Shown here in pieces: positions 6,146-62,301 of a stretch of 64,000 nucleotides of DNA. Source of the DNA: a bacterium. Lineage in GTDB: Bacteria; Patescibacteriota; Minisyncoccia; UBA6257; MFKM01. The notes under the pieces are model-generated. The model was not told the origin of the DNA and did not search any database. It worked only from the letters and a program-made list of their open reading frames with translations. Position 1 is the first letter of the stretch. Every line of letters starts with the position of its first letter. Where the stretch lies: NCBI GenBank assembly GCA_030693325.1, contig JAUYAV010000011.1:109603-173602 (forward strand). Reading direction: 5' to 3'. The position numbers and the translations under genes were made by a program.

Positions 6146-9100
6146 TTAGTATTGCGCGTCAGCAATAGTGAACGGAACAACGCTGGCTTCTATAGGAAGA
6201 CTGCCATTTATTCCATCATTCCATGTGACATCGGTGGCACCATTAATGGTTACTGACAGTGATTCACTCATACTGGCAACGTCATAGAAAGCGGAAGAAT
6301 CAACTCTCAATATAGTAGCCTGAGTAGCTCCTTTGGAAATAGTGAACGTAGGCGCAAAGGTAACATCGCAAGTGTTGCCGGCAGCCGGAGTACAGGTTTG
6401 CTGTGTGGCGCCGCCAAACGCTGTGGTGTCGCTCTTTAACAAGTCAACCTTGAATGCGGTTGAACCGCTGGAAACAGCAACGCCGGTAAATTTAACGGTA
6501 ACCGTTCCCAATATCACTGAACCGGCCGAATTGGCTGTCCAGTTTATGGTTGCCAAATTGTCAGTTGCTGTCCTGGTGCGGCCTGATGTCGCGCCAATTA
6601 AAGTGGAAGTAAAGGCCAATTTGGTTTTATACACCGTGATAGCGGTATCGCTGGCGGCCGAACCACTGATAGTGGCCGCGGTGTTAGAGTCGCTGCCAAT
6701 ACCGGTAATATCGGTTGAAGTAGCGTTAATTTTCCAGGTGTGAGTTGTGACAGATTTCGAACCTCCGGAATCATAGCTCGCCACATCGCCCTTAAGAGTT
6801 AAGGTAACAGTATCGTTCTTGGCAACAACCAACGGAGCGGCCAAACTGAAGAGCACCGTGGAAGTTGTCGTACCGACAACAGTCGCTCCCATCGGGCCGG
6901 CCAATAAAGTCGTACCGTTGTATAACTTCAGATTTTCAAATGAAGCTAATCCCGCGGTGTTTCCGGTAATGGTGTCGTAGAATTTGATGGCCGAAACCTT
7001 CATATCTTCGTAAGCATTACCAGCCAAGCTGATGGCGAACAAATCATTGTTGGTTTGCGACATTACCACCTGTTTTGCCGATGGCGTGGTTGAATCAAGC
7101 GCTAAAGTCAAAGTAGCGCCGGAAGCAATAGTTACATCCGGACCGGCAACTCCACCGGTTGGAGAAAAAGTAATGGCGCTGTTGGAAACCAAACCCGTGG
7201 CTGTCCAAGCAGTCAAGTCAATAGCAGTAGCTTCGGTTTCAGCAGTGGCAAGAAGGTCGGTATAAACATCAACTATTACCGAACCTCCGGCCGCAACCGT
7301 AATCGGGATAGCGCCTGAAAATTGCATCGCCGTTTCCGCGGCAGTCTTGCTGACTGTCGCCTTGGTCACGCCGAATTGAACGCCTCCAACCATTACTTTC
7401 AAGTTCTGGATGTGAAGGGTAAACGCGTCCTTGTCAAAAGTTAAGGTTGAAACTTTAGCGCCTTCAGCTGAAGAAGCGGTTAAAGTGAAAGAAGCGATTC
7501 TCTTGTTGTTGCCTCCAGCTACATAAGTCGGGGCGCCAAAAGCGGTGTTCAAAGCCGCTGTTAACGGTGAAGAAACAACCGTCAAAGTGCTACCGCTTCG
7601 TGAACCAGTGGTAGCAGTCGCGAAAGAGGTTTGACCCTCTAAGTTATTTGCATTACCAGGCAAAGAGCCGGTAAGTGAAGTAACGTCGGCAGAACTACCA
7701 ATATCAGCTTTAAGTGAAAGTATTCTGGTAGTGTTCGCTGGAACAATGTAATTGATTGCCGAAGCGCTGGTACCAAAGTGACACTTTATGGAAGTAGCCG
7801 CTAAGGTACATGTGCCGTTGGTGGTTCCGCCAGCAACTGTGCTGATGGTATTACCAACCTGATTGCCGGCATCGTCAATTATTTTGATGTTTTTAACATC
7901 ATCGGTGACATTACCGATGGTCTCCCAAGTGGCGCTACCAGCTTCGGTAATTGTCGCATCCAAAAATTTCACTTTTACAGCTTCACCCGCCGCATATACG
8001 GCGAATTTAGCCAAAGTGACATTAGAAGCGCCAATCGGAATACTTCCGGTTGGTGAGTCTGACGCCAAAGAAACTGTGATTGAGCCCGTACCAATGGTTA
8101 CTTGGGTTGAGTAGGTATCAGTAAAAGTGCCGGAGATTCCGGTGTTGTACTGGCTATCAACCAAATAAATATCATAGGGTCTCAAGACATACCAAGTCAT
8201 AGTCCGGCTTGGGCTGCCCATTACATCAACCGACACTCCCAAAGTGGAGTTACCGGTCGGTAACTTGACATCCGAGGAAGACAAGTCAAAAACAACTGTC
8301 CCATCGGAACCAACGCTGGCAACTGTTGAGCCAATCTGAGTACCGTTAAGGGTCAGTTTGGCATTCTTTAAATCACCCATACTGACTGAGCCAACAACGG
8401 TGTATTTGATTGTTTTAAGAGCAACCGCGCTGTTGTCGACAGTGACAGTGGCATTGCTAACATTGACGCCCATAGTACCGGCATCAACGGTCGCGCCCAC
8501 GGCCTGGTGATCAATAGTGACCGTCGCCAAAGAAGGATTAGTGACAGTAGTAACTGTCAAAGTGTTGGAGCTAACCGGCAAACCGCTGAAAGTAACGCCA
8601 GCCGCTGTGGCTGAAGTTAACTGCCAGGCGATATTGTTGCCCGCGCTCGCGCTTGTGGACAAATCCATTCTCAAAGCGATGGTGCGGGTAGCACCGGCGC
8701 TGATATCAAACAATTTAGTGGCTGAAAAAGTCGCCACTCCGCTTGACAGAGAATTGTATTGAGCGATAACCGCTCCGGTTTCATCCGCCAAGTAAAGGTT
8801 GTTGATATTGCTGTCGCTGGTTACACCAATTTTGGTGAGTTTTATTTCAGTAACAGTAGCAGCGCTTAAAGCTGAAAAAACAAATTTACCAACTACCATA
8901 TTCCCGGCTCCGGCAATAACGCTGCCAGTCGGGGAATCAGAAGCCAACGAAACGGATGTGTTCGTGACTGCTGGCGCGCCCGGAGTTGTCGGAGTGGTCG
9001 GGGTTGTTGGGGTTGTTGGAGTGGTTACAGCCACTGACGCAACATAAGCCCGAGTCTTGGGTCCAAAATATCCGGCTGGAGGAGTAATTCCTTTAGCCGC

Positions 9101-9460
9101 CTGATATTTCGCCAAAGCCGCCTGTGTCAATGAACCGAAATAAGTGGTTTCATTGCCAACTGAACCAGCTCCGGAAGCAGCTACCGCATATCCTGAAGCA
9201 TTCAAGAGCTGCTGCAAAGCCATAACATCATCGCCTTTTGAACCAAGGGTGAGGTCCTTAGTGAAAGTGTATGAAGTCGTTTGCGTGGTACCTTGAGCCG
9301 TAGCTAATTGAGTCTGTAATAACTGAATTGATGCCAATAAGGCATTGATCTGTGTTTGGAGTTCGCTAACGGTAGCTGCTCCTACCGGCATCATCAATGA
9401 ACCGGAAAGAAAAACAGCTGTCGTCAATGAAATCGCAATTGAACTAATTTTTCTACTCAT
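6146..9460 (-). CDS. Giant secreted/cell-surface protein: signal peptide, coiled coil, peptidoglycan-binding domain, (TPTTP)n linker, then about 900 aa of Thr/Ser/Ala/Val-rich Ig-like beta repeats
   Basis: N-terminus MSRKISSIAISLTTAVFLSGSLMMPVGAA is a signal peptide. LTLGSKGDDVMALQQLLNASGY...TQAALAKYQAAKGI matches PG_binding_1. TPTTPTTPTTPTTP linker. Internal repeats (SLASDSPTGSVIAGAGNMVVGKFVF vs SLASDSPTGSIPIGASNVTLAKFAV). Confidence 0.6.
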   Translation of the reverse strand: MSRKISSIAISLTTAVFLSGSLMMPVGAATVSELQTQINALLASIQLLQTQLATAQGTTQTTSYTFTKDLTLGSKGDDVMALQQLLNASGYAVAASGAGSVGNETTYFGSLTQAALAKYQAAKGITPPAGYFGPKTRAYVASVAVTTPTTPTTPTTPTTPGAPAVTNTSVSLASDSPTGSVIAGAGNMVVGKFVFSALSAATVTEIKLTKIGVTSDSNINNLYLADETGAVIAQYNSLSSGVATFSATKLFDISAGATRTIALRMDLSTSASAGNNIAWQLTSATAAGVTFSGLPVSSNTLTVTTVTNPSLATVTIDHQAVGATVDAGTMGVNVSNATVTVDNSAVALKTIKYTVVGSVSMGDLKNAKLTLNGTQIGSTVASVGSDGTVVFDLSSSDVKLPTGNSTLGVSVDVMGSPSRTMTWYVLRPYDIYLVDSQYNTGISGTFTDTYSTQVTIGTGSITVSLASDSPTGSIPIGASNVTLAKFAVYAAGEAVKVKFLDATITEAGSATWETIGNVTDDVKNIKIIDDAGNQVGNTISTVAGGTTNGTCTLAATSIKCHFGTSASAINYIVPANTTRILSLKADIGSSADVTSLTGSLPGNANNLEGQTSFATATTGSRSGSTLTVVSSPLTAALNTAFGAPTYVAGGNNKRIASFTLTASSAEGAKVSTLTFDKDAFTLHIQNLKVMVGGVQFGVTKATVSKTAAETAMQFSGAIPITVAAGGSVIVDVYTDLLATAETEATAIDLTAWTATGLVSNSAITFSPTGGVAGPDVTIASGATLTLALDSTTPSAKQVVMSQTNNDLFAISLAGNAYEDMKVSAIKFYDTITGNTAGLASFENLKLYNGTTLLAGPMGATVVGTTTSTVLFSLAAPLVVAKNDTVTLTLKGDVASYDSGGSKSVTTHTWKINATSTDITGIGSDSNTAATISGSAASDTAITVYKTKLAFTSTLIGATSGRTRTATDNLATINWTANSAGSVILGTVTVKFTGVAVSSGSTAFKVDLLKSDTTAFGGATQQTCTPAAGNTCDVTFAPTFTISKGATQATILRVDSSAFYDVASMSESLSVTINGATDVTWNDGINGSLPIEASVVPFTIADAQY

Positions 9461-9591
9461 TTTTAATTAATTTTTAAATCGACTTAGAATTATTAATTTT
9501 TAATTTTTGGAAGATTATCACTTTTATTCATCGACCCGCCGCTAAGCTTGTGAGGTTAGTTAGCGGAATAAATAGAAGAATAATCCTAGTA

Positions 9592-9852
9592 TCATTTTTT
9601 AAAACTCACTAATTGTCGAAAATCTGCTTGTAATTCTTTAAATTGATCTTCTAATCTTTCAATACGGTTTTTATACTCATGGAAAATAATTTCCTCTAAC
9701 TGATCAAATCTTTTATTCATTTCGTACTCTAATAAATCAAATTTTTTATCAACCTTGCTAAATTTTATATTCATCTCTTCAAATCCCGAGTTTACCATCT
9801 TAGCCAAATCATCAAGGGTGATATTTTTTTTTAATTTTATATTTTTTTTCAT
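9592..9852 (-). CDS. Hypothetical small coiled-coil protein (start probably MKKNIKLKK at 9852; the track ORF extends to 9954 through a repeat cluster)
   Basis: Charged, heptad-like sequence. The upstream 100 nt carry CATGA repeats and a hairpin plus T-run on the - strand just before this ATG. Confidence 0.35.
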   Translation of the reverse strand: MKKNIKLKKNITLDDLAKMVNSGFEEMNIKFSKVDKKFDLLEYEMNKRFDQLEEIIFHEYKNRIERLEDQFKELQADFRQLVSFKK

Positions 9853-10090
9853 TTTGTAAATAAAAAATCTCACTTTGAAAAGTGAGACTGATTTCGCTTC
9901 ATGAAACATTAAGCTTGAAACATGAAACATTAAAAAATACGCTTCATGATTCATGTTTTATGCTCCATGAAAATACCGTTCAGCCTCACTTCTGAACCTT
10001 TCTATTATACTACACGCCAAATATATATCAACTGAGCTACCACTAAACTTGAACATATCGTAATAGTGATAACTATTAAATAGAACGGAA

Positions 10091-10750: not shown

Positions 10751-10801
10751 TAAACTTCAGTATCCTATATTTGATGATTGAATGTCAAGAGGTTTCAAGC
10801 A

Positions 10802-10937
10802 AACCAAACTTGTCTGAGAAAATATCCCGCAGGCGTCCAAAGATTGGTCTCCGCGAAGCGGAGTTTGGACGCCGAGGGAAAAGAAAATTTTGCCGCTGGA
10901 GCAAAATTATTCTGGTTTTCGAAGGCAAGTTTGGTTT
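10802..10937. ncRNA. Candidate structured ncRNA, copy A (unclassified family; strand unresolved)
   Basis: Ends pair over about 20 bp (ccaaacttgtctgagaaaat / attctggttttcgaaggcaagtttgg). Nested hairpins gcgtccaaa-[gattggt]-ctccgc-GAA-gcggag-tttggacgc and aattttgc-cgctgga-gcaaaatt. Homologous to 27727..27942 with compensatory stem replacements. The track ORFs 10771..11067 and 10778..10984 are spurious. Confidence 0.55.
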
Positions 10938-11063: not shown

Positions 11064-13003
<1,940 letters not shown>

Positions 13004-13034
13004 ATTTCTCGGCTGGATTACTGAAAACATCTCA

Positions 13035-13063
13035 AAACGGAGGCGATTGCCTCCGTTTTTGTT
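13035..13063 (+). terminator. Rho-independent terminator of groESL
   Basis: aaacggaggcgattgcctccgtttttgtttttt. Confidence 0.7.
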
Positions 13064-13148
13064 TTTTACTCGGCATCTTTATTTGACAGCGCGGAATTTT
13101 TCTGTTTTTATGCTTGTAGCATTTTAAAAATAAAACTATAATGTTGTT

Positions 13149-13616
13149 ATGGAAAATAAAGGAAGAATAAGTTGGGATGATTTTTTTATGAGCGTTGCCC
13201 AATTATACGCGGAAAGGTCCGCCTGCAAACATTTCAAGGTTGGCGTTGTCTTCGCTAAAGACAAAAGAATTTTATCGGGAGGTTATAATGGCCCGCCGAG
13301 CGGCGAACCTCATTGCACTGAAGTCGGCTGCGCTAAAGAAGACAAAAACGGCAAAAGGTTGCCTGCCGGTTCCGGTTTATGCCGCGGCGCCCATGCCGAA
13401 ACAAACGCCATCGCCAATGCCTCGTCTGAAGGAATAAATCTGCGCGGTTCAACCGTCTACTGTATTTATTCGCCTTGCTACGATTGCGCCAAAGTGTTGG
13501 TGAATCTCGGCATTAAAGAATTCGTTTACCTCAAAGAATACGGCGACGAAGACAAAAGCCTCGCGAAAGAACTTTTTAGCCGCCACAAAATTTTGGTAAG
13601 AAAAAAGAAAATCTAA
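13149..13616 (+). CDS. dCMP deaminase (ComEB/cytidine-deoxycytidylate deaminase family)
   Basis: Zinc-binding HAETNAI and PCYDCAKVL motifs. Confidence 0.85.
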   Translation: MENKGRISWDDFFMSVAQLYAERSACKHFKVGVVFAKDKRILSGGYNGPPSGEPHCTEVGCAKEDKNGKRLPAGSGLCRGAHAETNAIANASSEGINLRGSTVYCIYSPCYDCAKVLVNLGIKEFVYLKEYGDEDKSLAKELFSRHKILVRKKKI

Positions 13617-13627
13617 GGAGGTGGGAA

Positions 13628-14443
13628 ATGGTTAATGGACAATTAGTAGCTCATGTGTTCGCTAGCGATCTTGACGATGCCTGGTATCAATGCGTAAAAA
13701 CGGTAATTGAGAAAGGAAGGATATATCTTATCAGCGCCGGAAGTTTTGAAAAAACGCACCGCGCGGGAATGCCGATTATTGCGGAAATTCATAATCCCGG
13801 TCATAGGCCGCTTGCCCCATTGATGCCCGAAGGGTCCTCTGTCATCCCGCCGACAAACGAAGAATACATCAACCAGTATTTTGATTATCTCTGCAGTCCG
13901 GACAAAACGGCGAGCGAACATTATACCTACGGCGAAGATATCTGGTGGCAAATTGAATGGCTAGTGGAATATTACAAAAAAGCGGGGCATGAAACTAATC
14001 ATGGCTATATGACCGTCGGCCGACCGGAATCAATACTGTTTTACGAACGCAAATTGGAGCTTGTTGAAAAAATTTCTGTTTACGACCCGGTAAAGAAAGA
14101 AATCTGGTGGGAGAGAGTAATTTCAAATGCCTGGAATAAAAACAACGAAATAAAAACCAGCTCGCAATGCCTGCGCGGAATTGACACCTGGATTGAAAAT
14201 AACAAACTGCATTTCTGGGTTTACTTCCGAAGCTGGGATTTATGGGCCGGCTTTCCTACTAATCTCGGCGGAATTCAGTTGCTGAAAGAACATATGGCTG
14301 AAAGAATAGGCGTAGAAGACGGCCAACTGGTCGTCTCAAGCAAGGATTTACATATCTACGAATATGCCTGGCCATACGCCTTGCTAAGACTGGGAAAAGA
14401 TGAAAAATTCCTGGAAAAGCGTTTGGCAGAAGAAAAGCGCTAA
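13628..14443 (+). CDS. Thymidylate synthase family protein (divergent ThyA-like)
   Basis: Aligns by eye to the ThyA catalytic core: SNAWN; catalytic Cys in SQCL (PCH in ThyA); [20 protein letters not shown] versus [28 protein letters not shown] versus GDTHLYSNH. N-terminal half divergent. Confidence 0.6.
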   Translation: [271 protein letters not shown]

Positions 14444-20042: not shown

Positions 20043-21809
20043 TTGATTTCTGCCGGCTTGAGGGCTAAAATTCATACAAATAACATGCTCACTCCTTTAG
20101 AAGAAATCAAGGGAAAAATTGATATTGTTGACTTTATTAAGTCCTATATTCCGCTTCAGCCGGCCGGCAAAAATTTCAAAGCTCCCTGCCCTTTTCATCA
20201 GGAAAAAATACCATCGTTTATTGTTTCCCCGGAGCGCCAAATCTGGCACTGCTTCGGTTCCTGCGGCGAGGGCGGCGATGTTGTTAAGTTTTTGATGAAA
20301 TATGAGAATCTGGAATTTTATGAAGCTCTGCGGGTTCTGGCGGAAAAAGCAGGGGTGGAGCTGAAGAGCCTTAATCTCCAGGACCAAAAAGAATTTAATA
20401 CTCTTTACGACCTCAACGAAAAAGCCAAAAATTTTTATAAAGAACAGCTGGCTAAATTTCCGGCCGTACTGGAATATCTGAAAAAACGGGCTCTTCAACA
20501 GAAAACCATTGAAGAATTTGAAATCGGATTCGCGCCGGCTGGCGGCGAAAATTTGATTTTATATCTGATTAATCTCGGCTATAATATCAATGATATTGCC
20601 AAAGCCGGCTTGGCCATTAAAACCGAAAAAGGAAAATATCTGGACAGATTCTATAACCGGATAATGTTCCCCATTTATAATAATTTCGGCAAGGTTATCG
20701 CTTTCACCGGCCGGATTCTGCCCCAGTTTGAAAGTCCGGAAATAGGCAAATACGTCAACAGCCCGGAAACCCCGCTCTTTAATAAATCCCGAGTTCTTTA
20801 CGGATTTCATAAAACCAAATCGGAAATCGGCCACACACAGACCGCTTTTTTGGTTGAGGGACAAATGGATTTTCTGATGGCCTGGCAGTCGGGTATTAAA
20901 AACGTGGTCGCCACTTCCGGCACCGCCTTGAGCCAAGACCAGCTGAAAAATCTGAAAAGGTTAGCCGAAAATTTAATTGTAAGTTTTGATAAAGATGAAG
21001 CCGGCATCAAAGCCCTGGAGCGCGGTTTGGATCTCTTTAGCGATTTTGATTTTAATGTTAAAGTTCTTGATCTAAACGGATACAAAGACCCGGCGGAAGC
21101 GGCGGAAAAAAATCCCGATTATCTCAAAACAGCCCTGGAAAAAACCCAGCTGGCCTTTATCTGCCTTTTTGATTTTTATTTTAAAAGCAATCTTGACTGG
21201 GCAGCCAAAAAAAGCAACATCCGCCATTTATTACGCCACATCAAGACCATTAAAAGCGCCATTGAGCAGGCACATTGGCTGAAAGAGCTCGCCTTGAAAT
21301 CCGGAATTGAAGAAAAAGTCCTAACCTACGAGCTGGTCACTATCAAAATCAAATCCTCCGCCTCAGCTGATATTGAAGAAGTCAATAATAAAGAAATTAT
21401 CAAACCCTCGCGATTGAATTTGCTTTGCCAAAAACTTTTGTCATTGATTCTATCCAAGCCCGAGTTCCTCCCTGATGTTATTCAAAACCGCAATTATTTT
21501 CCCGCTGATTGGCAAAAATTCTTGGACGACCCTTCATTGCTTCAGAGCGGGGCAAAAAACGAACTGATTTCCTTCTTGGATCTCCGTTCCAGTTATGAAT
21601 TTTCCGATCTTGATGAGCCGGCTTTGCAAAAAGAATCAGAAGAATTAATCAAACATTTAAAAATAGAATTTTTAAAAAACCAGGGTCATCAAATGCAAAA
21701 AGAAATAAAATCAGCCCAGGAAAAAAACGATAAAAACCTCCTGGATGATTCTTTGAAAAAATTTCAAAATATTTCCCAAGAAATTAATAATTTAAAAAAT
21801 AACAAATGA
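20043..21809 (+). CDS. dnaG: DNA primase DnaG
   Basis: Zinc-binding [11 protein letters not shown]...[44 protein letters not shown]. Confidence 0.9.
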
Positions 21810-23044
21810 AAAAATCAAAAAAAATAAAGAAAGTAAAAAAAACAAAAACAAGAAAAAATAAGCTCCCCGGGAAAAAAGCCAAGCTAAGATTGCGCCTTCG
21901 CTCAAAAGCTCAGCACGGCAAAAAATCTCCCAAAAAACAAAAAAAAATAATCCTATTTATTGAGGAAGATTTTGAATTTAAAGGAAAAGATAAAAAAAAG
22001 TTAGATACTTTAATCAAGAGGGGCAAGAGTAAAAAATATATCACTGATTTGGAAATCCTTTATTTCTTCCCCGATATTGAACACAACATTCCCCTTTTGG
22101 AAAAAATATATGAAATTTTAGAAAAAAGCAGCATCGGGGTAATTGAAACCGAACAATTCATCAAAACTTCGGAAGACCCGATTGAGAAAGAACACAGCAA
22201 TGTTCGTGAAACCCTGCCTGATGCCGTCCAGATGTATCTTAAGGAAATCGGCAAAACTCCCCTTTTAAAAGCCGAGGAAGAAGTGTCCTTGGCTAAAAGA
22301 AAGGAGAGAGGAGAAGAAGCAGCCAGGCAGCAACTGATGAAAGCCAATCTCCGGCTGGTGGTTTCTATCGCCAAAAAATACGTTCACCGCAGCCCCAATT
22401 TAAGCATCTTGGATTTGATTCAGGAAGGCAATATCGGGCTTTCCCGCGCCGTGGAAAAATTTGACTACCGCAAAGGTTTTAAATTTTCCACTTACGCCAC
22501 CTGGTGGATCCGCCAGGCCATCACCCGCGCCTTAGCCGACCAGTCCCGGACCATCCGTATTCCCGTTCATATGGTGGAAACCATTTCCAAATACACCCAG
22601 ATTAAAAGGAAGCTCACCCAGGAATTGGGACGGATGCCATTAGCGGAAGAAATCGCCAATGAGATGGGAATTGAAGTCAGCAAAATTCATTATATCCAAA
22701 AAATTTCCCAGGAAGTTATTTCTTTGGAAATGCCTTTGGATGAAAATGAGAGCGAAGGAGTCACTCTGTCTGATTTTATCCCGGATAACCAAAGTTTAAC
22801 GCCAGAACAATTAGCCAGCCATACGCTTTTAAGAAACCAGCTTAAGGAAATTATCAGCGACCTTTCGCCGAGGGAACAAAGGATTTTAAGCATGCGTTTT
22901 GGCTTGGAAGACAATGTCACCCACACCCTTGAAGAAGTCGGCAAGGAATTCGGGGTGACGAGGGAGCGAATCCGGCAGATTGAAGCTAAGTCCTTGGAAA
23001 AAATCCGCCAGCATAAAGAAATTGGAAAATTGGAGGGATACTAA
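21806..23044 (+). CDS. rpoD: RNA polymerase sigma factor RpoD (sigma-70) with Lys-rich N-terminal extension
   Basis: Regions 2-4: [40 protein letters not shown]...[24 protein letters not shown]. Classical dnaG-rpoD arrangement. Confidence 0.92.
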
Positions 23045-23051
23045 AAATCTA

Positions 23052-23129
23052 ATGACCAGCAAAGAAATACGAAATTTATTTCTGGAATTTTTTAAGGAAA
23101 AAGGACATACCATCGTCCCCTCTTCTTAA
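23052..23129 (+). pseudogene. Orphan 5' fragment of an alanyl-tRNA synthetase gene (25 codons then stop)
   Basis: MTSKEIRNLFLEFFKEKGHTIVPSS* matches the universally conserved AlaRS N-terminus (..EIR..F..FF..KGH..V.SSSL) better than the intact alaS at 25800 does. Nucleotide sequence diverges from the intact copy. Confidence 0.6.
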
Positions 23130-23372
23130 TATTAATATCATTGACAGATTTGATTAAAAATTCTATGCTGATGATAGAAAAAGTCGATAAAATTTATTTC
23201 TTTTAAAAATGAGAAAAAAAATACAAACTAAAATTGTGAAAGTTCGCCAAGCTAAGAAATGCTATCCTATAACAAGTAAAGCTAAGACTTTTATTTATAC
23301 TGCAGAAAGCGTTACGCCATTAATAGCGGCAGGAAAAACACCTAAAATCAAATAATAAAGTGAAATGGGTGA

Positions 23373-24836
23373 TTGATAGGCGATAAAATTCTGCCCAAAA
23401 AGGCGCGGAGGAAATTTTTAATTTTTATGAAAAAAAGAAAGCAAAAAGAGATACTAAGCAAAAAATTAACCCACCCGAATTATATATTCTGTTTAAAAAA
23501 GGAGAGGAATTGGTGTTTATATAACGCCTTAACCTTAAAAAAATGTTATGGAGGGAAGGAACTCTCGGCAGTTTATCGTTTGACAAACAAACTGATTGAA
23601 GAAGAAATTCTTGTTCGTAAATTAATAAATTGCGACCATGATCCAGAAGAAATAAAAAAACTCATCCGTGAATTGAAGAAAGAAAAATTTTTGGTTTACT
23701 CAAATTTTAGTGGAGAAAAATTCCGAGAAAAAATTAAAAATGGATTAAAAAAAATAAAATATCAACCGATGGGAATGTACCTCCTCGTTTCTACGGGATG
23801 TAATTATCGGTGTAAATATTGTTGCCTGGAACACAGTATCGATACTCATTCGCTCCAGCCAAAATTAATGTCTTTTAAAGTAGCGAGGGAAGCAGTCAAT
23901 TTTTTCTTTAAATCTTCTCCTAATCCTCAGTATATTTGTTTCTTTGGTGGCGAACCATTAATTAATTTTAAAATAATTAAAGAAATTGTTGAATATATTA
24001 ATACTGAATATCCAAATAAAAAAATCTTTTTCCGAATTAACACAAATGGTTCATTGGTCAATCAAGAAATCGCAGAATTTTTTGCTAAATATAATTTTGT
24101 TATTGGGGTATCTATTGATGGGACGAAAAAATATCATAATTCATGTAGAGTGTATCCAAATGATAAAGGCACTTTCGAAGATACTATTAAGGGTTGGCAT
24201 CTCCTTCAAAAAGCAGGATGTAAAAACTTAGGGACAGTAGCGGTCCTTAACTCTCAAAATATTGAAGCAGTTGAAAAGAATATCTTATTTTTCCTTGATG
24301 AATTAAAAGCTGATTCAATAAATTTTGAGCCAGTAGGAATAATAACAGAACCTCAATATTTATATCTTTATCCCTCTCCAAAGAAAGTTGCACAGGCTCT
24401 CGTCAAAAATTACGAAAATTTAGAATCTCGCGGAAAGTTAGATAATTATATTGCACGATTTCTAATTCATTTTTTAGGGGAAAAAGTTCTTTTTTGCCGC
24501 TGCGGCTCACGATACGGAAGTTTAATAATCGACCCCCAGGGGAACAAGGGTCCTTGTTTCAATTTTCTTGGAAGTGTTTATTTTTCTAAAAAAGGTATTA
24601 CTTATGCGAAAGAATGGAAAAACATTTCTCCGGTTAATATGCCCGAATGTACTAATTGTATTGCTATAGGAATTTGTGGTGGTATTTGCGCAGCCCATGC
24701 AAGAGCGGTGGGTGGAAATATTCGAAGCATTGACTTAGAATATTCTTGTGAGATTATGAAAGAAATCTTAAGATGGATGATTTGGGATCTAGAAAAAAGA
24801 TTAGCATCTAAGAATGAGGCAAAAAATAAACCGTAA
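23373..24836 (+). CDS. Radical SAM enzyme with C-terminal SPASM domain (peptide-maturase-like)
   Basis: CNYRCKYCC (CxxxCxxC) radical-SAM cluster motif. C-terminal Cys-rich SPASM-like pattern CRCGSRYG...GPCFNF...CTNCIAIGICGGICAAHA. About 130-aa N-terminal extension (possible RRE). Very AT-rich. Confidence 0.75.
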   Translation: MIGDKILPKKARRKFLIFMKKRKQKEILSKKLTHPNYIFCLKKERNWCLYNALTLKKCYGGKELSAVYRLTNKLIEEEILVRKLINCDHDPEEIKKLIRELKKEKFLVYSNFSGEKFREKIKNGLKKIKYQPMGMYLLVSTGCNYRCKYCCLEHSIDTHSLQPKLMSFKVAREAVNFFFKSSPNPQYICFFGGEPLINFKIIKEIVEYINTEYPNKKIFFRINTNGSLVNQEIAEFFAKYNFVIGVSIDGTKKYHNSCRVYPNDKGTFEDTIKGWHLLQKAGCKNLGTVAVLNSQNIEAVEKNILFFLDELKADSINFEPVGIITEPQYLYLYPSPKKVAQALVKNYENLESRGKLDNYIARFLIHFLGEKVLFCRCGSRYGSLIIDPQGNKGPCFNFLGSVYFSKKGITYAKEWKNISPVNMPECTNCIAIGICGGICAAHARAVGGNIRSIDLEYSCEIMKEILRWMIWDLEKRLASKNEAKNKP

Positions 24837-24842
24837 AATTTT

Positions 24843-25769
24843 ATGAAATTTAAACTGATATTGAATAAAAATGCGAATTTTTATTATTTTCTTCATAATC
24901 TTGCTGAAATTAAAGAACCCTTGCATTATCGAAAATGGAATATTATGCCTTGGAAGAAAGAACTAAATTTTCCATTTTCTTCCTCAGAAGCCACTGCTTT
25001 AAAAAAATTTAAAAAAAAATATTATGCTAATTTCCCAAAAATATATTTGGGTAGATTTTTTTTCTTGGAGAAAAATTCTTGGGAAACTCTTAAAAACGAA
25101 GTTGGGCAGGAAGAAATTAATATTTTGAACGATGTATTTCGAATATGGAAAAATAAATTCTTCTTGATTTATAGGAGAGATTTGCCAAATTTAAAAAAAT
25201 GGCGAAAAAAATTGGAAATAGAAATTCAAAAACTTAGCAAGTCTTCCTTAATAAACTTCATCAATACAAAACTTATTAAATTTTTTAATGCTCCTGTTCC
25301 ATTTAAAAAAAAATTAAAGATTTATTTAATGCTTTGCGGTACTTCAAATACTGCTAGCGGAGAAAGAGGAAGGGGTCTTGATGGAAAAAGTATCCTTATA
25401 GAAATTTCTCGTTGCCCAACCCATCAAATAAATTATGTTATAGGTGTTATTTGGCACGAATATGTTCATTGTTGTCTTGCATCTTATCATTTACGGCCAC
25501 TGCTTTTAAATTTTTTTAAAAACGACTCAAAAGTATTATTTGCTGAAGAAATTATTGTTAGATCATTATTTCCAACAGGAATTTTTGGTATAAAATTTTT
25601 TAAAATATGTCCACCTTCAACATTAACTTCCAGCAAATGGGAGACACTGCCCAAAATCAATAAAAAACAAACCAAAATGGTTATTGACCTTACAGACCAA
25701 TATCTGCAAAAAGAGAAAAAAATTGATACATTCTACGTAAAAAAAATAGGTCGAATATTAAAAATTTAA
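24843..25769 (+). CDS. Hypothetical protein with HExxH motif (WHEYVHCC), putative metallo-hydrolase
   Basis: Single HEYVH motif in an otherwise unrecognised Lys/Phe-rich 308-aa protein; co-located with the radical SAM gene. Confidence 0.4.
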   Translation: MKFKLILNKNANFYYFLHNLAEIKEPLHYRKWNIMPWKKELNFPFSSSEATALKKFKKKYYANFPKIYLGRFFFLEKNSWETLKNEVGQEEINILNDVFRIWKNKFFLIYRRDLPNLKKWRKKLEIEIQKLSKSSLINFINTKLIKFFNAPVPFKKKLKIYLMLCGTSNTASGERGRGLDGKSILIEISRCPTHQINYVIGVIWHEYVHCCLASYHLRPLLLNFFKNDSKVLFAEEIIVRSLFPTGIFGIKFFKICPPSTLTSSKWETLPKINKKQTKMVIDLTDQYLQKEKKIDTFYVKKIGRILKI

Positions 25770-25799
25770 AAAGAATTATTAAATCTTTATCAAAAAATT

Positions 25800-27659
25800 A
25801 TGAATTCAAATGAGATTAGAACAAAATTTATTGAATTTTTTAAACAAAATGACCATCTTAGGATACCCGGTTCGTCATTGATATCTGAGGATCCTACTCT
25901 TTTATTCGTGAATGCCGGCATGGTTCAATTCAAACCTTACTTTTTGGGTCTAAAAAAACCTCTATCAAAACGAATCACTGATTTTCAAAAATGCTTCAGG
26001 ATGATTGATATTGATAAAGTCGGTAATAATAATAGAACATTAACTTTCTTTGAGATGTTAGGAAATTGGTCTATTGGAGATTATGGAAGAAAAAAAGCAA
26101 TATCTTATGCTTGGGAATTACTTACTAAAATTTACAAAATTAACAAAGAAAGATTGTGGGTTAGTATTTTTAAAGGAGAGAAGAATATTCCCTACGACAG
26201 AGAAACACTGGAGGTCTGGATGGGTACAGGAATAAAAAGGGAAAGGATTGTGGAACTCGGCTTAGAAGATAATTTCTGGATAGGTGGGCCTACAGGCCCT
26301 TGTGGTCCTTGTAGTGAAATCTATTATGACCTAGGAGAGGATTTTGGTTGTGGCAAAAATAATTGCAAGCCCGGTTGTGATTGCAATCGCTTTTTAGAAA
26401 TTTGGAATTTAGTTTTTATAGAATATTGCAGAGACGAAAAAGGAAATACTGTCAATCTACCAATAAAAAGCATAGATACAGGAGCTGGGCTGGAAAGATT
26501 AGCTATAGTGCTTCAACAGAAATCCTCAATTTTTGAAACAGATTTGTTTGCTCCAATAATAGAAAAAATTCGAAATTGGAAATTCGAAATTGGAAATTCT
26601 GATTTGGCCGACCGAAGTGAACGAATTATCGCTGATCATACAAAAAGTGCTGTTTTTTTGATATCTGAAGGAGTTTTTCCTTCTAATGTTGAAAAAGGTT
26701 ATATCTTAAGAAGAATTTTAAGAAGAGCAATTAGATTTGGTAAATTATTAAAATTGCCAAAAAATTTTCTGATTACTTTGGCTCAAAAAGTTTTTGAAAT
26801 TTACAGAGAAGTCTATCCCGAACTTAAATCGAAAGGGGCTGATATTTTAACTATAATTCAAAAAGAAGAAGAAAAATTTGAAGAAACCTTAGACGAAGGA
26901 ATAAAAGCACTTAAAAAAATCTACGGAAGAGCCATAGGAGGAGTGGACCCCGAAAATTTACCAGAGGGAATGGTTATTAAAGATAATATAATAAGGGTTG
27001 ATGGGCAAGAGATTTTTCATATATACGAAACTTATGGTTTACCCCCAGAACTTTCTCAAGAAATTATGACCGAATGGGGAATCAGATTTGATGATCAAAC
27101 AATAAAAGAATGCGGGGAAGCCTTCAAAAAACACCAGGAAATTTCCCGGGCCGGGCTGGAAAAAAAATTCGGCGGGCACGGTTTGAAAGATGGCGGCGAA
27201 ATCACCGGCGCGACCGAGGAAGAAAAACAAAAAATAGTCCAGCTTCACACCGCCACTCACCTGCTCCACCAAGTGTTAGCTGATTTATTCGGCGAAAATA
27301 TAAAGCAGATGGGTTCGGATATAAACCCCGAACGCTTCCGCTTTGATTTTCCGTTTGAAAGAAAATTAACGCCGGAAGAAATCACTAAAATTGAAGAAAT
27401 CGTCAACCAAAAAATCAAAGAAAATTTACCTGTTAGATTTGAAGAAAAAACAAAAGAAGAAGCGATTGCCGAAGGAGCCAAGGCCTTTTTCAAAATTAAA
27501 TATCCGGATAAAGTAAAAATTTATTCCATCGGCGATTACAGTAAGGAAATCTGCAACGGCCCGCACGTGAAAAACACCTCCGAAATCGGTAAGTTCAAAA
27601 TAATCAAAGAAGAAGCGGTTGGGGCAGGCATCAGAAGAATTAAAGCAACTATTGATTAA
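25800..27659 (+). CDS. alaS: Alanine--tRNA ligase (short form lacking the C-Ala domain), compositionally chimeric
   Basis: N-terminus NEIRTKFIEFF..DH..IPGSSL...NAGM, editing-domain HTATHLLHQVL and CNGPHV motifs. About 30% GC up to roughly 27.05 kb, then about 45-50% GC to the stop. Confidence 0.9.
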   Translation: MNSNEIRTKFIEFFKQNDHLRIPGSSLISEDPTLLFVNAGMVQFKPYFLGLKKPLSKRITDFQKCFRMIDIDKVGNNNRTLTFFEMLGNWSIGDYGRKKAISYAWELLTKIYKINKERLWVSIFKGEKNIPYDRETLEVWMGTGIKRERIVELGLEDNFWIGGPTGPCGPCSEIYYDLGEDFGCGKNNCKPGCDCNRFLEIWNLVFIEYCRDEKGNTVNLPIKSIDTGAGLERLAIVLQQKSSIFETDLFAPIIEKIRNWKFEIGNSDLADRSERIIADHTKSAVFLISEGVFPSNVEKGYILRRILRRAIRFGKLLKLPKNFLITLAQKVFEIYREVYPELKSKGADILTIIQKEEEKFEETLDEGIKALKKIYGRAIGGVDPENLPEGMVIKDNIIRVDGQEIFHIYETYGLPPELSQEIMTEWGIRFDDQTIKECGEAFKKHQEISRAGLEKKFGGHGLKDGGEITGATEEEKQKIVQLHTATHLLHQVLADLFGENIKQMGSDINPERFRFDFPFERKLTPEEITKIEEIVNQKIKENLPVRFEEKTKEEAIAEGAKAFFKIKYPDKVKIYSIGDYSKEICNGPHVKNTSEIGKFKIIKEEAVGAGIRRIKATID

Positions 27660-27675
27660 AACGATCTCTACTAAA

Positions 27676-27716
27676 ATAAAAAGGAGTTGGCGTCGGCTAA
27701 CTCCTTTTTATTTTAA
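27676..27716. terminator. Bidirectional rho-independent terminator between alaS and the ncRNA/rpsI region
   Basis: aaaaaggagttggcgtcggctaactcctttttatttt (A-run, hairpin, T-run). Confidence 0.65.
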
Positions 27717-27726
27717 AATCTGACCT

Positions 27727-27942
27727 AACCAAACTTGTCTGAGAAAATATTCCATAGCCAAGCGCCGTAGGACTTACGCAGTTGCCTTGAAGAATATCCC
27801 GCAGTCCCGACGGGCTTGGTTTCCGATGAAATCGGAACCGTCGGGACGAGGGAAAAGAAAATTTTGTCGCTGGAGCAAAATTATTCTGGTTCTGAAAGGC
27901 AATTGCGGAAGTCCTGCTTCTGTTTTCGAAGGCAAGTTTGGC
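27727..27942. ncRNA. Candidate structured ncRNA, copy B (same family as 10802..10937, about 80 nt of insertions)
   Basis: Same terminal helix (ccaaacttgtctgagaaaat / ttcgaaggcaagtttgg). Homologous hairpin gtcccgacgg-[gcttggt]-ttccgat-GAA-atcggaa-ccgtcgggac with entirely different but still complementary stem sequences. Conserved core gagggaaaagaaaattttgYcgctggagcaaaattattctggtt. Lies between the alaS terminator and the rpsI stop. Track ORFs 27697..27969, 27787..28041 and 27816..28037 are spurious. Confidence 0.55.
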
Positions 27943-27953
27943 TGGGTCTATCC

Positions 27954-28421
27954 CTATCTCTTCGCCCATTGCGGCGCGCGACGGGCTTTCTTAAGACCGA
28001 ATTTCTTCCGCTCTACCATCCGGGGATCTCTTTTTAGATAACCCAAGCCCTTAATAAGGGCTTTTAAATTAGCATCAAACAAAACCAAAGCCCGTGATAA
28101 ACCATGGCGCACCGCTTCGGCTTGGCTGCTCATTCCCCCGCCTGAAACTCTGACAGTGACATCTGCCTTGCCATTCAGTTTTGTTTTTTCCAAAGGAGAA
28201 AAGGCCATTTGCTGAAGACGGGCTGTGGGGAAATATTTGAGATAATCTTTTTCATTCACCAAAACGCCGCCCGCGCGGTTGTAAAGCCGAACCCGGGCGA
28301 TGGCGGTTTTTCTTCTGCCAACCGCTTCAAAATAACGGTCTGTTTTAACTTTAACAGGCGAAGGCTTGCTTACTTTTTCAACTTTTTTTACTTTTGCTAC
28401 TTTTGTTATTTTTTCAGCCAT
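27954..28421 (-). CDS. rpsI: 30S ribosomal protein S9 (with N-terminal Lys/Val-rich extension)
   Basis: GRRKTAIARVRLY...VRVSGGGMSSQAEAVRHGLSRAL...KKARRAPQWAKR. Confidence 0.93.
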   Translation of the reverse strand: MAEKITKVAKVKKVEKVSKPSPVKVKTDRYFEAVGRRKTAIARVRLYNRAGGVLVNEKDYLKYFPTARLQQMAFSPLEKTKLNGKADVTVRVSGGGMSSQAEAVRHGLSRALVLFDANLKALIKGLGYLKRDPRMVERKKFGLKKARRAPQWAKR

Positions 28422-35407: not shown

Positions 35408-35869
35408 ATGAATCAGATTGATTTTGAGAATCAAATAAAAATTGCGATTTCTAATTTTATATATTTACATCACTTTCTTTTAGAAAAAGATGTGAACGAA
35501 CGCTCAATCACACATAAATTAGCCGAATGCTTAACACCATTATTCCCCGAATGGGATATTGATTGCGAATATAATCGCGTCGGAGACAAACTATACAACC
35601 CCAAAAAAATTGGTTTATTTCCCGAACCCGTAAGTAGCGATGATGGAAAAGCCGTGACTATTTATCCTGACATTATCATCCATCACAGAGGAAAAATTGG
35701 ACTAGACAATAATTTGGCGGTTATTGAATTAAAAAAGAACCCAAATAAAAAACAAAGCGATAAAGACATTGATAAAATAAGAAAGATTAAAAAAGAGTTA
35801 GAATATCAAATCGGAATATTTCTAAAATGCTCTATAGAAGATATAATCCCGATTTATTTTATCAACTAA
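35408..35869 (+). CDS. Hypothetical protein with putative PD-(D/E)xK nuclease signature
   Basis: TIYPDIIIHHRG ...(about 15 aa)... LAVIELKK resembles a PD...(E)xK restriction-endonuclease-fold core. Weak, single-sequence inference. Confidence 0.35.
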   Translation: MNQIDFENQIKIAISNFIYLHHFLLEKDVNERSITHKLAECLTPLFPEWDIDCEYNRVGDKLYNPKKIGLFPEPVSSDDGKAVTIYPDIIIHHRGKIGLDNNLAVIELKKNPNKKQSDKDIDKIRKIKKELEYQIGIFLKCSIEDIIPIYFIN

Positions 35870-47786: not shown

Positions 47787-48269
47787 TCATAGTTCCATTC
47801 TTAAGGTTTCCGGCAAATATTTATTCTTTGGATATTTTTTTATTCCAGCTTTAACAAATCCGCATTTCTCGTAAGCTTTGATGGCTCTTAAATTCGTGGG
47901 GCGAACCTCAAGAAAAATTTTTGAAATGCCGAGTTGTTCCGCTTTTTTTATAAGTATTTGAATAGTTTTTGTGCCATAACCTTTATTCCAATATTTTTTC
48001 TCTCCGATAACGATTTGGGTCTCATGCCATTTATTATTTCTTTTTACCAACGAAATATGGCCGATAGCTTTTTTATTTAAAGTTAATATAAAGTTGTAAT
48101 CGGTTTTACTATTTAAAATATTCAGAAAATATTTTTCCACTTTTTTGTCCGAGATTGAATCTAAAATACCGCTTGTTAATTTAAGCAGTTCCTTATTTCT
48201 CCACCATTTTGCGAAATATTTTTTATCTGTTTTTTTAATTTTTCTTAAAAAGAATTTGGGCATATACAA
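47787..48269 (-). CDS. GNAT family N-acetyltransferase
   Basis: Acetyl-CoA motif block ...QIVIGEKKYWNKGYGTKTIQILIKKAEQLGISKIFLEV. Confidence 0.75.
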   Translation of the reverse strand: MYMPKFFLRKIKKTDKKYFAKWWRNKELLKLTSGILDSISDKKVEKYFLNILNSKTDYNFILTLNKKAIGHISLVKRNNKWHETQIVIGEKKYWNKGYGTKTIQILIKKAEQLGISKIFLEVRPTNLRAIKAYEKCGFVKAGIKKYPKNKYLPETLRMEL

Positions 48270-52956: not shown

Positions 52957-53886
52957 ATGAAGGAGTATTTTTTTGATGCCGATGGTGTTAGGTTAAACTA
53001 TGTTAAAGGGGATAATAATGGCCCTGCCTTAGTATTAATTCCTGGACAGAGCACTACATGGCAAAGTTACGAACCCGTTTTTAAGGGTTTGAGTAAAAAT
53101 TTTCAAGTATATTCTTTAAGTATCAGGGGTCATGGTAAAAGTGATTGGACTACTGGCGATTATAATTTTGATAGCATAGGAAAGGATGTAACGCTTTTTT
53201 TGGAAAAAATTATTAAACGCCCCACAATCCTTGTTGGCAATTCTAGCGGAGGTTTGATTAGTTTATGGATAGGTGTTAATAAACCAGAATTAGTAACTGG
53301 TGTTATTTTGGAAGACGCTCCTTTATTTAGCGCTGATTGGCCGCGGATAAAAAAAGAATTTGTATATGAAGTATTAAGTAAAACTGCTAAGTATTTGGGC
53401 AAAGAAGGTGGTGCTGATTATGTGGGTTTTTTAAATAGCATAGAAAGGCCATTGCTCAACGGCAAAACCAAAACCTTGCCTAAGTTATTAAGCAAGGGTT
53501 TAGCTTGGTTAATATATAATAGAGAATATAGACCAGGAAAAGTTATTATTAATACTCTTCCCAGGATTTTAAAAATGTTGGTTCGTATTATTCCTACTTT
53601 TGATCCTGATTTTTCAAGAGCGTGGGTTGATGGCAGGATTTATAAGGGATTAGATCACGAGGATGCTTTGAAAAAAATTAAAGTTCCTTTGCTAATTATT
53701 CATGCTAATTGGTTTAGAACAGAGAAGGGCTTGGTTGGGGCTATGGATGACAATGACGCAGAAAAGGCTAAAAGATTAGCGCCTCATGCCAAATATATCC
53801 GGATAAAAACACAACACTCGATTCACTCCGGAAAACCGAAAGAGTTTATCAGAATTATTAACGAATTCAAGAAAGATATAAAATAA
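52957..53886 (+). CDS. Alpha/beta-fold hydrolase
   Basis: Nucleophile elbow GNSSGG, HG oxyanion motif (SIRGHGKSD). Confidence 0.7.
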   Translation: MKEYFFDADGVRLNYVKGDNNGPALVLIPGQSTTWQSYEPVFKGLSKNFQVYSLSIRGHGKSDWTTGDYNFDSIGKDVTLFLEKIIKRPTILVGNSSGGLISLWIGVNKPELVTGVILEDAPLFSADWPRIKKEFVYEVLSKTAKYLGKEGGADYVGFLNSIERPLLNGKTKTLPKLLSKGLAWLIYNREYRPGKVIINTLPRILKMLVRIIPTFDPDFSRAWVDGRIYKGLDHEDALKKIKVPLLIIHANWFRTEKGLVGAMDDNDAEKAKRLAPHAKYIRIKTQHSIHSGKPKEFIRIINEFKKDIK

Positions 53887-62300: not shown

Positions 62301-62301
62301 T

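Follow-up and report, generated by a model that had tools for sequence, protein, structure and literature searches.

Directly after rpoD in a 64,000-nucleotide stretch of Patescibacteria DNA (the window, to the whole of which all coordinates refer) lies a block of about 4 kb that carries a putative peptide-modifying operon together with much of an alanyl-tRNA synthetase (AlaRS) gene, alaS, and that probably entered by recombination within alaS itself. On the forward strand the order is rpoD, an orphan stub of an alaS 5' end, an open reading frame (ORF) for a peptide of 48 residues, a radical S-adenosylmethionine (radical-SAM) gene, a gene for an HExxH protein, a complete alaS and a hairpin. 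The proteins of the locus are entered at NCBI as MDP3052583–MDP3052586 of a metagenome-assembled genome. The Patescibacteria (candidate phyla radiation) origin follows from AlaRS, all of whose strong matches come from this phylum, where a short enzyme of 580–640 residues is the norm. Labels beginning with L denote contigs of relatives, and those beginning with P denote AlaRS proteins. The features are as follows, with GC3 standing for the GC content at third codon positions and RiPP for a peptide that is made by the ribosome and then modified post-translationally.

21806–23044, + strand: rpoD, the native left flank (GC3 0.47; Pfam Sigma70 regions 1.1–4)
23052–23129, + strand: orphan 'type B' alaS 5' stub, 25 codons with a TAA at 23127–23129
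23141–23169, + strand: promoter-like site TTGACA-17 nt-TATGCT at the left end of the cassette, the top score in the scan (10/12)
23209–23355, + strand: candidate RiPP precursor, a basic peptide of 48 residues (MRKKIQTKIVKVRQAKKCYPITSKAKTFIYTAESVTPLIAAGKTPKIK) whose homologues adjoin the radical-SAM gene
23373–24836, + strand: radical-SAM/SPASM maturase gene (PF04055, E = 3e-22)
24843–25769, + strand: predicted HExxH (zincin-like) metalloenzyme, 308 residues, of an uncharacterised family
25800–27659, + strand: complete mosaic alaS, 619 residues (NCBIfam PRK01584, 620 bits against a cut-off of 529)
25800–26879, + strand: alaS codons 1–360, a low-GC3 part for aminoacylation and tRNA recognition, 'type A' and putatively imported
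26880–27110, + strand: alaS codons 361–437, the 'M module' (GGVDPENLPEG...), low GC3 and inside the low-divergence block
27111–27659, + strand: alaS codons 438–619, the editing domain, of host-like composition (GC3 0.46)
27672–27715, no strand: hairpin with a 20-bp perfect stem and A/T runs on either side (inverted repeat I8, 95% complementary)

The stub opens with an ATG at 23052, 7 nt past the rpoD stop, and runs for 25 codons (MTSKEIRNLFLEFFKEKGHTIVPSS). Comparison with 120 AlaRS homologues distinguishes two N-terminal types, 'type A' (...EIPG...NAGMVQFKPY...), which occurs in low-GC genomes, and 'type B' (...IVPSSSL...AGMQQF...), the commoner of the two; the stub is type B and the N terminus of the intact alaS is type A. 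The stub shares 84% identity with the N terminus of AlaRS P0075. Against 118 Patescibacteria AlaRS N termini its mean identity is 59%, compared with 46% for the first 25 residues of the intact gene, and it is the better match in 92 of the 118. These data bear out two claims of a preliminary description of the locus, namely that a 25-codon AlaRS fragment stands directly after rpoD and that it fits the general AlaRS N terminus better than does the intact gene. No extra pieces of an alaS pseudogene were found by tblastn between the stub and the cassette. The stub is the remnant of a resident type B alaS. A recent duplication of the alaS 5' end was considered and rejected, as the two sequences are only ~70% identical at the DNA level over 30 nt and belong to different AlaRS types.

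The complete alaS is the only one within the window; both PF01411 (catalytic) and PF07973 (editing, tRNA_SAD) match it, and it passes the PRK01584 equivalog cut-off. Neighbour-joining trees were built for each segment with 200 bootstraps, and the segments disagree, as the preliminary description had anticipated for the two parts of the gene. Residues 1–300 are 64% identical to type A and 52% to the rest, and are sister to type A in 200/200 bootstraps (100%). Residues 361–436 are 75% identical to nine otherwise distant AlaRS (the M group), to which they are sister in 91.5% of bootstraps, and 24% identical to type A. Residues 437–619 are equidistant from all homologues (57–58%), with type A as sister in just 8.5% of bootstraps. 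On these alignments alaS reads as a mosaic with at least three histories, the last part of which, 27111–27659, is probably the 3' end of the resident alaS. The M module (...KALKKIYGRAIGGVDPENLPEGMVIKDNIIRVDGQEIFHIYETYGLPPELSQEIM...) is 70–86% identical among AlaRS that are otherwise 45–55% identical, and stands in place of a shorter, unrelated-looking linker found in most homologues, which suggests a segment exchanged on its own.

Base composition changes within the same gene. The GC content is 29.9% in the cassette (23130–25799), 33.0% in alaS at 25800–27110 and 42.1% at 27111–27659, with flanks of 40.9% and 41.6%. GC3 parts cargo from native genes better than plain GC does, with values of 0.20 for the peptide, 0.26 for the radical-SAM gene and 0.21 for the HExxH gene against 0.40–0.52 for native neighbours. 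The best single GC3 change point in alaS falls at codon 437 (nt 27111), where GC3 rises from 0.24 to 0.46 (twice the log-likelihood difference, 2dLL = 27; 0/2000 permutations equally strong), close to the ~27050 at which a low-to-higher shift had been guessed. The 45–50% GC then ascribed to the alaS 3' end was too high; the rise is real, with a mean of 42% and a peak of 45.7% in one 300-nt window. Since the M module has low GC3 and lies inside the block of low divergence described below, it arrived with the imported DNA, and the donor alaS was therefore already a mosaic. Thus the earlier proposal that the import brought its own 5' two-thirds of alaS is supported, with the amendment that the imported part is itself mosaic, residues 361–436 having a third affinity.

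The same architecture and the same GC3 step are present in the sister genome L002 (GCA_017973895.1), whose AlaRS is 89% identical to that of the window. L002 keeps the rpoD terminator and a 174-nt spacer before its own stub (MTSKKIRELFLNFFKEKGHTIVPSSQY, then a stop codon), and its stub–cassette junction, directly after codon 25, is identical. Synonymous divergence (dS) between window and L002 is 0.92 for rpoD and 0.93 for the stub; it is 0.32 for the peptide, 0.28 for the radical-SAM gene, 0.35 for the HExxH gene and 0.28 for alaS codons 1–437, and then 0.58 for codons 438–619. The three-fold lower dS within the block than in rpoD and the stub indicates that the common ancestor of the cassette region is more recent than that of the host flanks. 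In a two-boundary likelihood scan the maximum likelihood (ML) position of the low-divergence block is 23094–27369, with 9.3% divergence inside and 16.3% outside (2dLL = 48.6). The right edge has its ML position at 27369 and a first step near 27060–27120. The left edge falls inside the stub, with 13 differences in the first 54 nt and 5 in the following 103 nt (Fisher p = 9e-4); the first 54 nt of the stub diverge at the host rate and its final 24 nt contain 1 difference. The exchange is bounded on both sides by alaS-derived sequence. Synteny with L002 stops right after the alaS stop codon, where that genome has a GspE/PilB-like gene, and so the 3' end of alaS is the sole right-hand homology.

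We put at about three in four the probability that this ~4-kb block, with its left boundary inside the stub at ~23094–23130 and its right boundary at ~27110–27370, came from a low-GC Patescibacteria donor and entered by recombination in alaS-derived sequence. The preliminary description had proposed such an allelic replacement, with foreign DNA from 23130 to ~27050 recombined inside alaS, and GC3, segment trees, dS, host marker proteins and hidden Markov models (HMMs) all support it. In its home genomes, a RiPP-type operon of peptide, radical-SAM/SPASM enzyme and HExxH protein would lie immediately upstream of a type A alaS, and the recipient would have carried its resident type B alaS directly after rpoD. 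On the left side the event would have reduced the resident gene to its first 25 codons; on the right it would have fused the catalytic and tRNA-binding portion of the incoming gene (approximately the first 70% of alaS) in frame with the end of the resident editing domain, with recombination at codon ~437–520 in the window lineage and at ~280 in L003. The left join may have been illegitimate the first time and homologous, via the existing stub, in the later spread that includes the window and L002 lineages. Once formed, the structure could move between relatives by ordinary double crossover, the stub serving as one arm of homology and the 3' end of alaS as the other. For the uptake of the DNA we infer natural transformation with homologous or homology-facilitated illegitimate recombination.

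The resident alaS promoter would now drive the stub alone, and in the window the spacer before the stub appears to have been deleted as well. The site at 23141–23169, conserved in L002 with TATACT in place of TATGCT, is predicted to act as a promoter, and the hairpin at 27672–27715 is probably a bidirectional terminator closing the operon. The chimeric alaS, which begins 30 nt from the HExxH gene, would then be the last gene of the incoming operon, read from the cassette promoter to the hairpin at 27672. Cargo and essential alaS would thus probably share one transcript, an arrangement in which the cargo could not easily be lost without damage to an essential gene. A scan of 22500–28200 against Rfam, covering T-box and riboswitch families, gave no credible match at E <= 1.

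A second lineage, distant from the first, carries a related structure and is represented by three separate assemblies, each from a different sample (L003, L004 and L012). The ribosomal proteins S11, S4 and L17 and RpoA of the window are 42–56% identical to those of L003 and of its cassette-free relative L005; the radical-SAM enzyme is 75% identical to that of the L003 lineage, the peptide ~70% and the N-terminal part of AlaRS 65–69%. As the cassette proteins are far closer across hosts than are the ribosomal proteins, the cassette has been transferred across hosts. The L003 locus comprises a 57-codon type B AlaRS stub, which matches PF01411, a methyltransferase gene, the peptide gene on the opposite strand, the radical-SAM and HExxH genes and alaS. 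A low-GC3 island extends from ~5383 to alaS codon ~280, after which GC3 rises to the host level. Compared with L005, alaS codons 1–280 have a proportion of synonymous differences (pS) of 0.53, and saturation (0.70–0.80) is reached in the remainder of alaS and in every flanking gene. The L003 lineage records a second crossover inside alaS, at a different site (codon ~280). Immediately before the L003 stub, at 5383–5852 of the low-GC island, lies a pair of genes for proteins of 74 and 82 residues with overlapping stop and start codons; the 82-residue protein weakly resembles HigB/YoeB toxins, and the two are possibly a toxin–antitoxin pair carried along with the cassette.

L019 has the order radical-SAM, HExxH, alaS; its GC3 is uniformly low from the cassette through alaS into the gene downstream, and we take it to represent a donor-type state. 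The preliminary description had named the same insert beside a uniformly low-GC alaS as an observation that would refute a replacement; L019 has this form, but because its whole contig is low in GC we take it for the donor-type arrangement and not for a refutation. Its radical-SAM gene is split at 159–1543 into ORFs of 116 and 351 residues in different frames, owing perhaps to a frameshift, to an error of sequencing or to a maturase beginning to decay. The low-GC genomes L005, L026 and L027 have type A alaS genes and no cassette; in L010 and L011 the cassette is present on contigs too short to reach alaS. In a collection of 5.8 billion proteins, maturase orthologues of at least 70% identity are confined to about six Patescibacteria lineages. 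Scans of GTDB representative genomes with the radical-SAM enzyme returned distant paralogues only.

More distant loci show the module in other settings. L022 encodes a 46%-identical maturase and a homologous peptide of 71 residues, with a GNAT protein instead of the HExxH protein, and its peptide–maturase pair lies head-to-head with, and 62 nt from, a gene for a 443-residue AlaRS that consists of the catalytic and tRNA-binding part only. L020 and L021 encode a 42%-identical maturase with a homologous peptide and have no AlaRS within 10 kb, from which it follows that the module exists outside the alaS context too. The L020 contig is not Patescibacteria-like; the region of the maturase homologue (6456–9560 and 11600–14400) is full of IS21 and transposase fragments, and RND efflux and TetR genes lie nearby.

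Several observations weigh against the replacement as we have drawn it. At 0.58, dS for the 3' end of alaS is intermediate between the block and rpoD, and the right crossover is not sharp (27060–27370). The last 183 residues of AlaRS are without clear affinity, so their description as native relies on composition and dS only. rpoD and dnaG likewise contain internal GC3 steps, though weaker ones (2dLL 16–17), and composition is therefore not decisive and is not relied on by itself. The L003 stub is type B with an island-like GC3 of 0.24, yet the 3' part of alaS in that genome is type A; this stub probably came with the island as the scar of an earlier host, so that a stub need not always mark a local event. 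Within type A the AlaRS linked to cassettes are not a clade, their nearest relatives (P0011 and P0003) being cassette-free, which implies that cassette and alaS have also recombined relative to each other. Cassette lineages in the searched databases number only about six. Finally, a search with AlaRS residues 361–619 topped out at 68% identity and yielded no cassette-free close relative of the window lineage, and the ancestral rpoD–alaS (type B) state is accordingly reconstructed from the stub and L002 rather than observed.

The first gene of the cargo had been missed. The preliminary description reported no convincing precursor ORF in 23130–23373, and there is in fact a conserved candidate at 23209–23355, which NCBI lists as hypothetical protein MDP3052583.1. 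Homologues adjoin the radical-SAM gene in L002, L003 (on the opposite strand), L011, L022 and L020; in all, a homologous ORF of 48–71 residues stands beside the maturase, on either strand, in six lineages. Wherever the flank is visible, the ORF is conserved there. The ratio of nonsynonymous to synonymous divergence (dN/dS) of the peptide against L002 is 0.11. Patescibacteria copies share an invariant C-terminal KTFIYTAESVTPLI(V/A)AGKTPK, and a motif common to the L022 and L020 peptides too is [YF]P....[TS][FLV][IV][YF][TS]A[EK][SK][VI]. The lone Cys of the peptide is not conserved, being Ala in L022 and having no counterpart in L020, and a thioether of the sacti- or ranthipeptide kind is therefore unlikely to be the shared chemistry. 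The peptide is the presumed substrate of the maturase.

The preliminary description of the cargo enzyme as a radical-SAM protein with a SPASM domain, in a RiPP-like setting, agrees with the HMM searches, which give a RiPP-type radical-SAM/SPASM maturase. The best NCBIfam matches are PapB (3e-46), CcpM and SCIFF, with FibroRumin and others also found, all far under their cut-offs (PapB, 158 against 340 bits; SCIFF, 134 against 425 bits). The cluster-binding CX3CX2C at C143/C147/C150 is invariant among three orthologues, as is the SPASM set C377, G390, C395, C426, C429, C435, C439 and C459, with its seven C-terminal Cys; the gap C377-x12-G390 (C377-x17-C395) is slightly above the canonical SPASM pattern. 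The Pfam SPASM model did not reach E = 0.01, and the NCBIfam SPASM maturase models align through the region. The closest solved structure is CteB (5wgg, phmmer E = 3e-30), with residues 89–471 aligned to CteB and 29–474 to 8vpo. The N-terminal region of CteB is a peptide-binding domain. No PqqD-type Pfam model matched residues 1–139 even at E = 10. The true start is probably the ATG at 23427, the equivalent of which is used by the homologues; the long N-terminal extension noted earlier is thus partly an artefact of the TTG start, and a part of ~115 residues remains. The enzyme is predicted to cross-link the peptide or to modify it by some other radical reaction.

In this proposed pathway the HExxH enzyme would trim or hydroxylate the peptide. 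The preliminary description had recognised in this 308-residue protein nothing beyond the HExxH motif, which holds apart from a match to DUF5700 that is sub-threshold (19.7 bits against a cut-off of 25) and is shared by 2 of 81 family members; we add that the protein is not demonstrably a peptidase. No description of DUF5700 was found in the literature searched. The family comprises ~150 clusters, uncharacterised. Across 81 aligned sequences H205, E206 and E236 never vary, and at least 90% retain H209. The invariant Glu 27 residues past HExxH and a GGGAN-like strand recall gluzincin peptidases, and a PDB profile search gave E = 0.33 to an M1 peptidase. None of the 81 members matches the NCBIfam models for alpha-ketoglutarate-dependent HExxH (alpha-KG-HExxH) enzymes, even at E = 1. 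The AlphaFold2 model rose from a mean predicted local distance difference test (pLDDT) score of 36 with the single sequence to 96 with the 81-sequence alignment, and Foldseek found no significant match to it in the PDB. A role as a Zn peptidase that removes the leader is slightly favoured over one as an Fe/alpha-KG hydroxylase, because of the HExxH...E pattern and a GAMEN-like strand. Relatives of this protein are found with a methyltransferase and a different radical-SAM/SPASM enzyme of 365 residues (L024), or alone (L023 and L025). Genes for class I SAM methyltransferases recur beside the HExxH and radical-SAM genes (L024, 447–3426; L003, 6312–6863; L019, 4252–5052) and may encode an optional third tailoring enzyme of the module.

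Elsewhere in the window, genes at 9592–9954, 35408–35869, 47787–48269, 52957–55863 and 61296–63375 have a cargo-like GC3 of 0.23–0.31 and may be further imported islands of the same genome. A GC-rich, rod-like element of 238 nt (27716–27953) separates the alaS terminator from rpsI, at the very point at which L002 ceases to be syntenic; it has a minimum free energy of -116.7 kcal/mol on the + strand (z = -10.8) and no Rfam match. A shorter second copy at ~10800–10935, upstream of groEL, has conserved ends and a different central hairpin; the element is either a repeat resembling miniature inverted-repeat transposable elements (MITE-like) or a small structured RNA family. Many Patescibacteria contigs of 17–71 kb encode 'alanine--tRNA ligase-related' proteins of 166–450 residues that match the C-terminal part of AlaRS (for example P0146, P0158, P0179, P0189 and P0207), and a division of alaS between its catalytic and editing parts may be frequent in this phylum.

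The window derives from a metagenome-assembled genome, in which reads of two populations might have been joined within the conserved alaS. Such a chimera is extremely improbable, as the independently assembled Logan contig L001 is identical over everything between the 3' end of rpoD and the beginning of the rod-like element, with stub, cassette and alaS included, L002 shows the same junction and GC3 step in another assembly at 9–16% divergence, and the L003-type lineage was itself assembled three times. A history with no transfer at all is scarcely more credible. It would attribute the low GC to intrinsic heterogeneity of an AT-rich genome, with weakly expressed accessory genes, and the stub to the decay of a 5' end of alaS duplicated locally long ago, and it can draw on the other low-GC3 genes of the window and on the steps inside rpoD and dnaG; it does not accommodate a stub and an alaS 5' end of different AlaRS types with ~70% DNA identity, the conflict between segment phylogenies, the three-fold lower dS in the block or the much greater likeness of cassette proteins than of ribosomal proteins across hosts. 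The layout in two lineages, where a truncated copy of the target gene stands at one end and the whole gene at the opposite end, is what a site-specific integrative element would leave if it entered the 5' end of alaS and supplied a replacement 5' end, in the manner of phage-like islands at tRNA genes. We regard this, too, as very unlikely: ORF and Pfam searches found no integrase, recombinase or transposase within or beside the block, no flanking or att-like direct repeats were found at it, and viral contigs scanned with the radical-SAM and HExxH proteins contained no copies. Moreover, the break in the stub falls at codon 25 in one lineage and at ~50 in the other, and the right crossovers, deep within alaS, lie at codons ~437 and ~280, respectively. 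Integration of the tRNA/att type was rejected, there being no tRNA gene near the block and no flanking repeats.

A further explanation, compatible with the recombination history, is that the linkage to alaS is biochemical, the modified peptide acting on or with AlaRS or tRNA-Ala. The peptide might inhibit AlaRS, with the linked catalytic domain serving as an immune copy, or it might need AlaRS activity; the cassette would then have to supply an aminoacylation domain of its own. Resistant aminoacyl-tRNA synthetase (aaRS) copies occur in antibiotic clusters. A precedent for translation-fidelity genes in biosynthetic clusters is provided by AlaX deacylases, which act in self-protection (PMC13149037). 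In L022 adjacency to AlaRS has outlived rearrangement and the exchange of HExxH for GNAT, with a maturase only 46% identical, and the AlaRS there ends at the catalytic/editing boundary, where the segment imported into the window also ends (codon ~437); the four genes in the window are also tightly packed, with gaps of 6–30 nt. Nevertheless, the 443-residue AlaRS of L022 may be the N-terminal half of a housekeeping enzyme, since split alaS is apparently common in Patescibacteria, and a lasting linkage is also to be expected if passage between divergent genomes is open only to cassettes joined to a conserved gene. The AlaRS linked to cassettes, four in number, have no residue in common that is rare in others; the one match, G162, is frequent in type A. 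The nearest type A AlaRS (L026 and L027) lack the cassette, the maturase of L020/L021 has no AlaRS within 10 kb and HExxH homologues are found without alaS. No exporter or second alaS is visible, and in L003 the crossover (codon ~280) cuts through the catalytic region, contrary to what a need for a complete foreign catalytic domain would lead one to expect. We therefore consider a biochemical link unlikely, and slightly less likely still the specific proposal that the peptide–radical-SAM module is tied functionally to AlaRS, its product inhibiting or regulating AlaRS or being made with its help, and travels with a compatible catalytic domain that overwrites that of the host. If true, it would describe a RiPP cluster in reduced-genome symbionts that secures its own maintenance by supplanting an enzyme essential for translation, and a functional linkage would offer a target-directed handle on a new peptide natural product.

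The replacement by recombination inside alaS, which we prefer, has its own significance. Scar, cargo, crossover and donor-type state are all kept, giving an unusually legible record of how cargo enters streamlined Patescibacteria poor in mobile elements, by a process with at least two separate crossovers. It suggests that an essential conserved gene can supply both homology arms for an operon, and that cargo lying upstream of an essential gene in transcription should resist loss. The extensive domain-level mosaicism of alaS matters where aaRS genes serve as phylogenetic markers in Patescibacteria. The locus also adds two undescribed families, a radical-SAM/SPASM–peptide family and an HExxH family of ~150 clusters, to the short list of RiPP candidates from the candidate phyla radiation. 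Every component has a precedent (radical-SAM/SPASM RiPP clusters, HExxH partners, aaRS homeoallele replacement and homology-anchored insertion); the novelty lies in how they are combined, with repeated import of a biosynthetic operon via intragenic alaS recombination and a preserved scar, in reduced-genome bacteria. No linkage of radical-SAM genes to alaS in Patescibacteria was apparent in the literature searched, which was covered mostly through titles and abstracts.

Among known systems, the maturase is most readily compared with the SCIFF/ranthipeptide group (CteB, PapB and CcpM), with which it shares the CX3CX2C core, a seven-Cys SPASM C terminus and an adjacent small peptide gene; its N-terminal domain of ~115 residues aligns with the N-terminal regions of CteB and 8vpo. 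It differs in scoring far below the family cut-offs and in a conserved chemistry that is apparently not thioether formation, and the peptide, with one Cys, has neither the Cys-x3-Asp/Glu repeats of PapB-type substrates nor the six Cys in 45 residues of SCIFF. Triceptide-type RiPP pathways that pair radical-SAM with alpha-KG-HExxH enzymes have been described (ChlB/ChlH; PflC, PosC and BpmH; IPR026337/TIGR04267; PMC12636437). As in those, an HExxH protein of putatively zincin-like fold is encoded beside (or fused to) a radical-SAM/SPASM maturase, and methyltransferase or GNAT genes recur in the related loci L003, L019, L024 and L022. Unlike the alpha-KG-HExxH enzymes, the window family has 0/81 matches to their models and carries the gluzincin-like Glu and strand.

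Self-protection genes such as AlaX (PMC13149037) resemble the locus in that an enzyme of alanine translation is tied to a natural-product-like cluster, an association that persists in L022. Unlike a self-resistance aaRS, the window gene is the only visible alaS, a housekeeping gene without cassette-specific substitutions. For the recombination itself, homeoallelic replacement and mosaicism of aaRS through biased gene transfer (PMC3191353) offer the closest parallel, with two divergent AlaRS types in one phylum replacing each other by recombination. The insertion of foreign DNA by one- or two-sided homology in natural transformation (PMC3410848) is alike in placing foreign cargo beside a conserved anchor gene, with no need of mobility genes. 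In contrast to both precedents, the replacement here is partial and has produced an intragenic chimera at or near a domain boundary with a readable 5' stub left behind, a full biosynthetic operon has been dragged in, and two separate crossovers are recorded in uncultivated, reduced-genome Patescibacteria.

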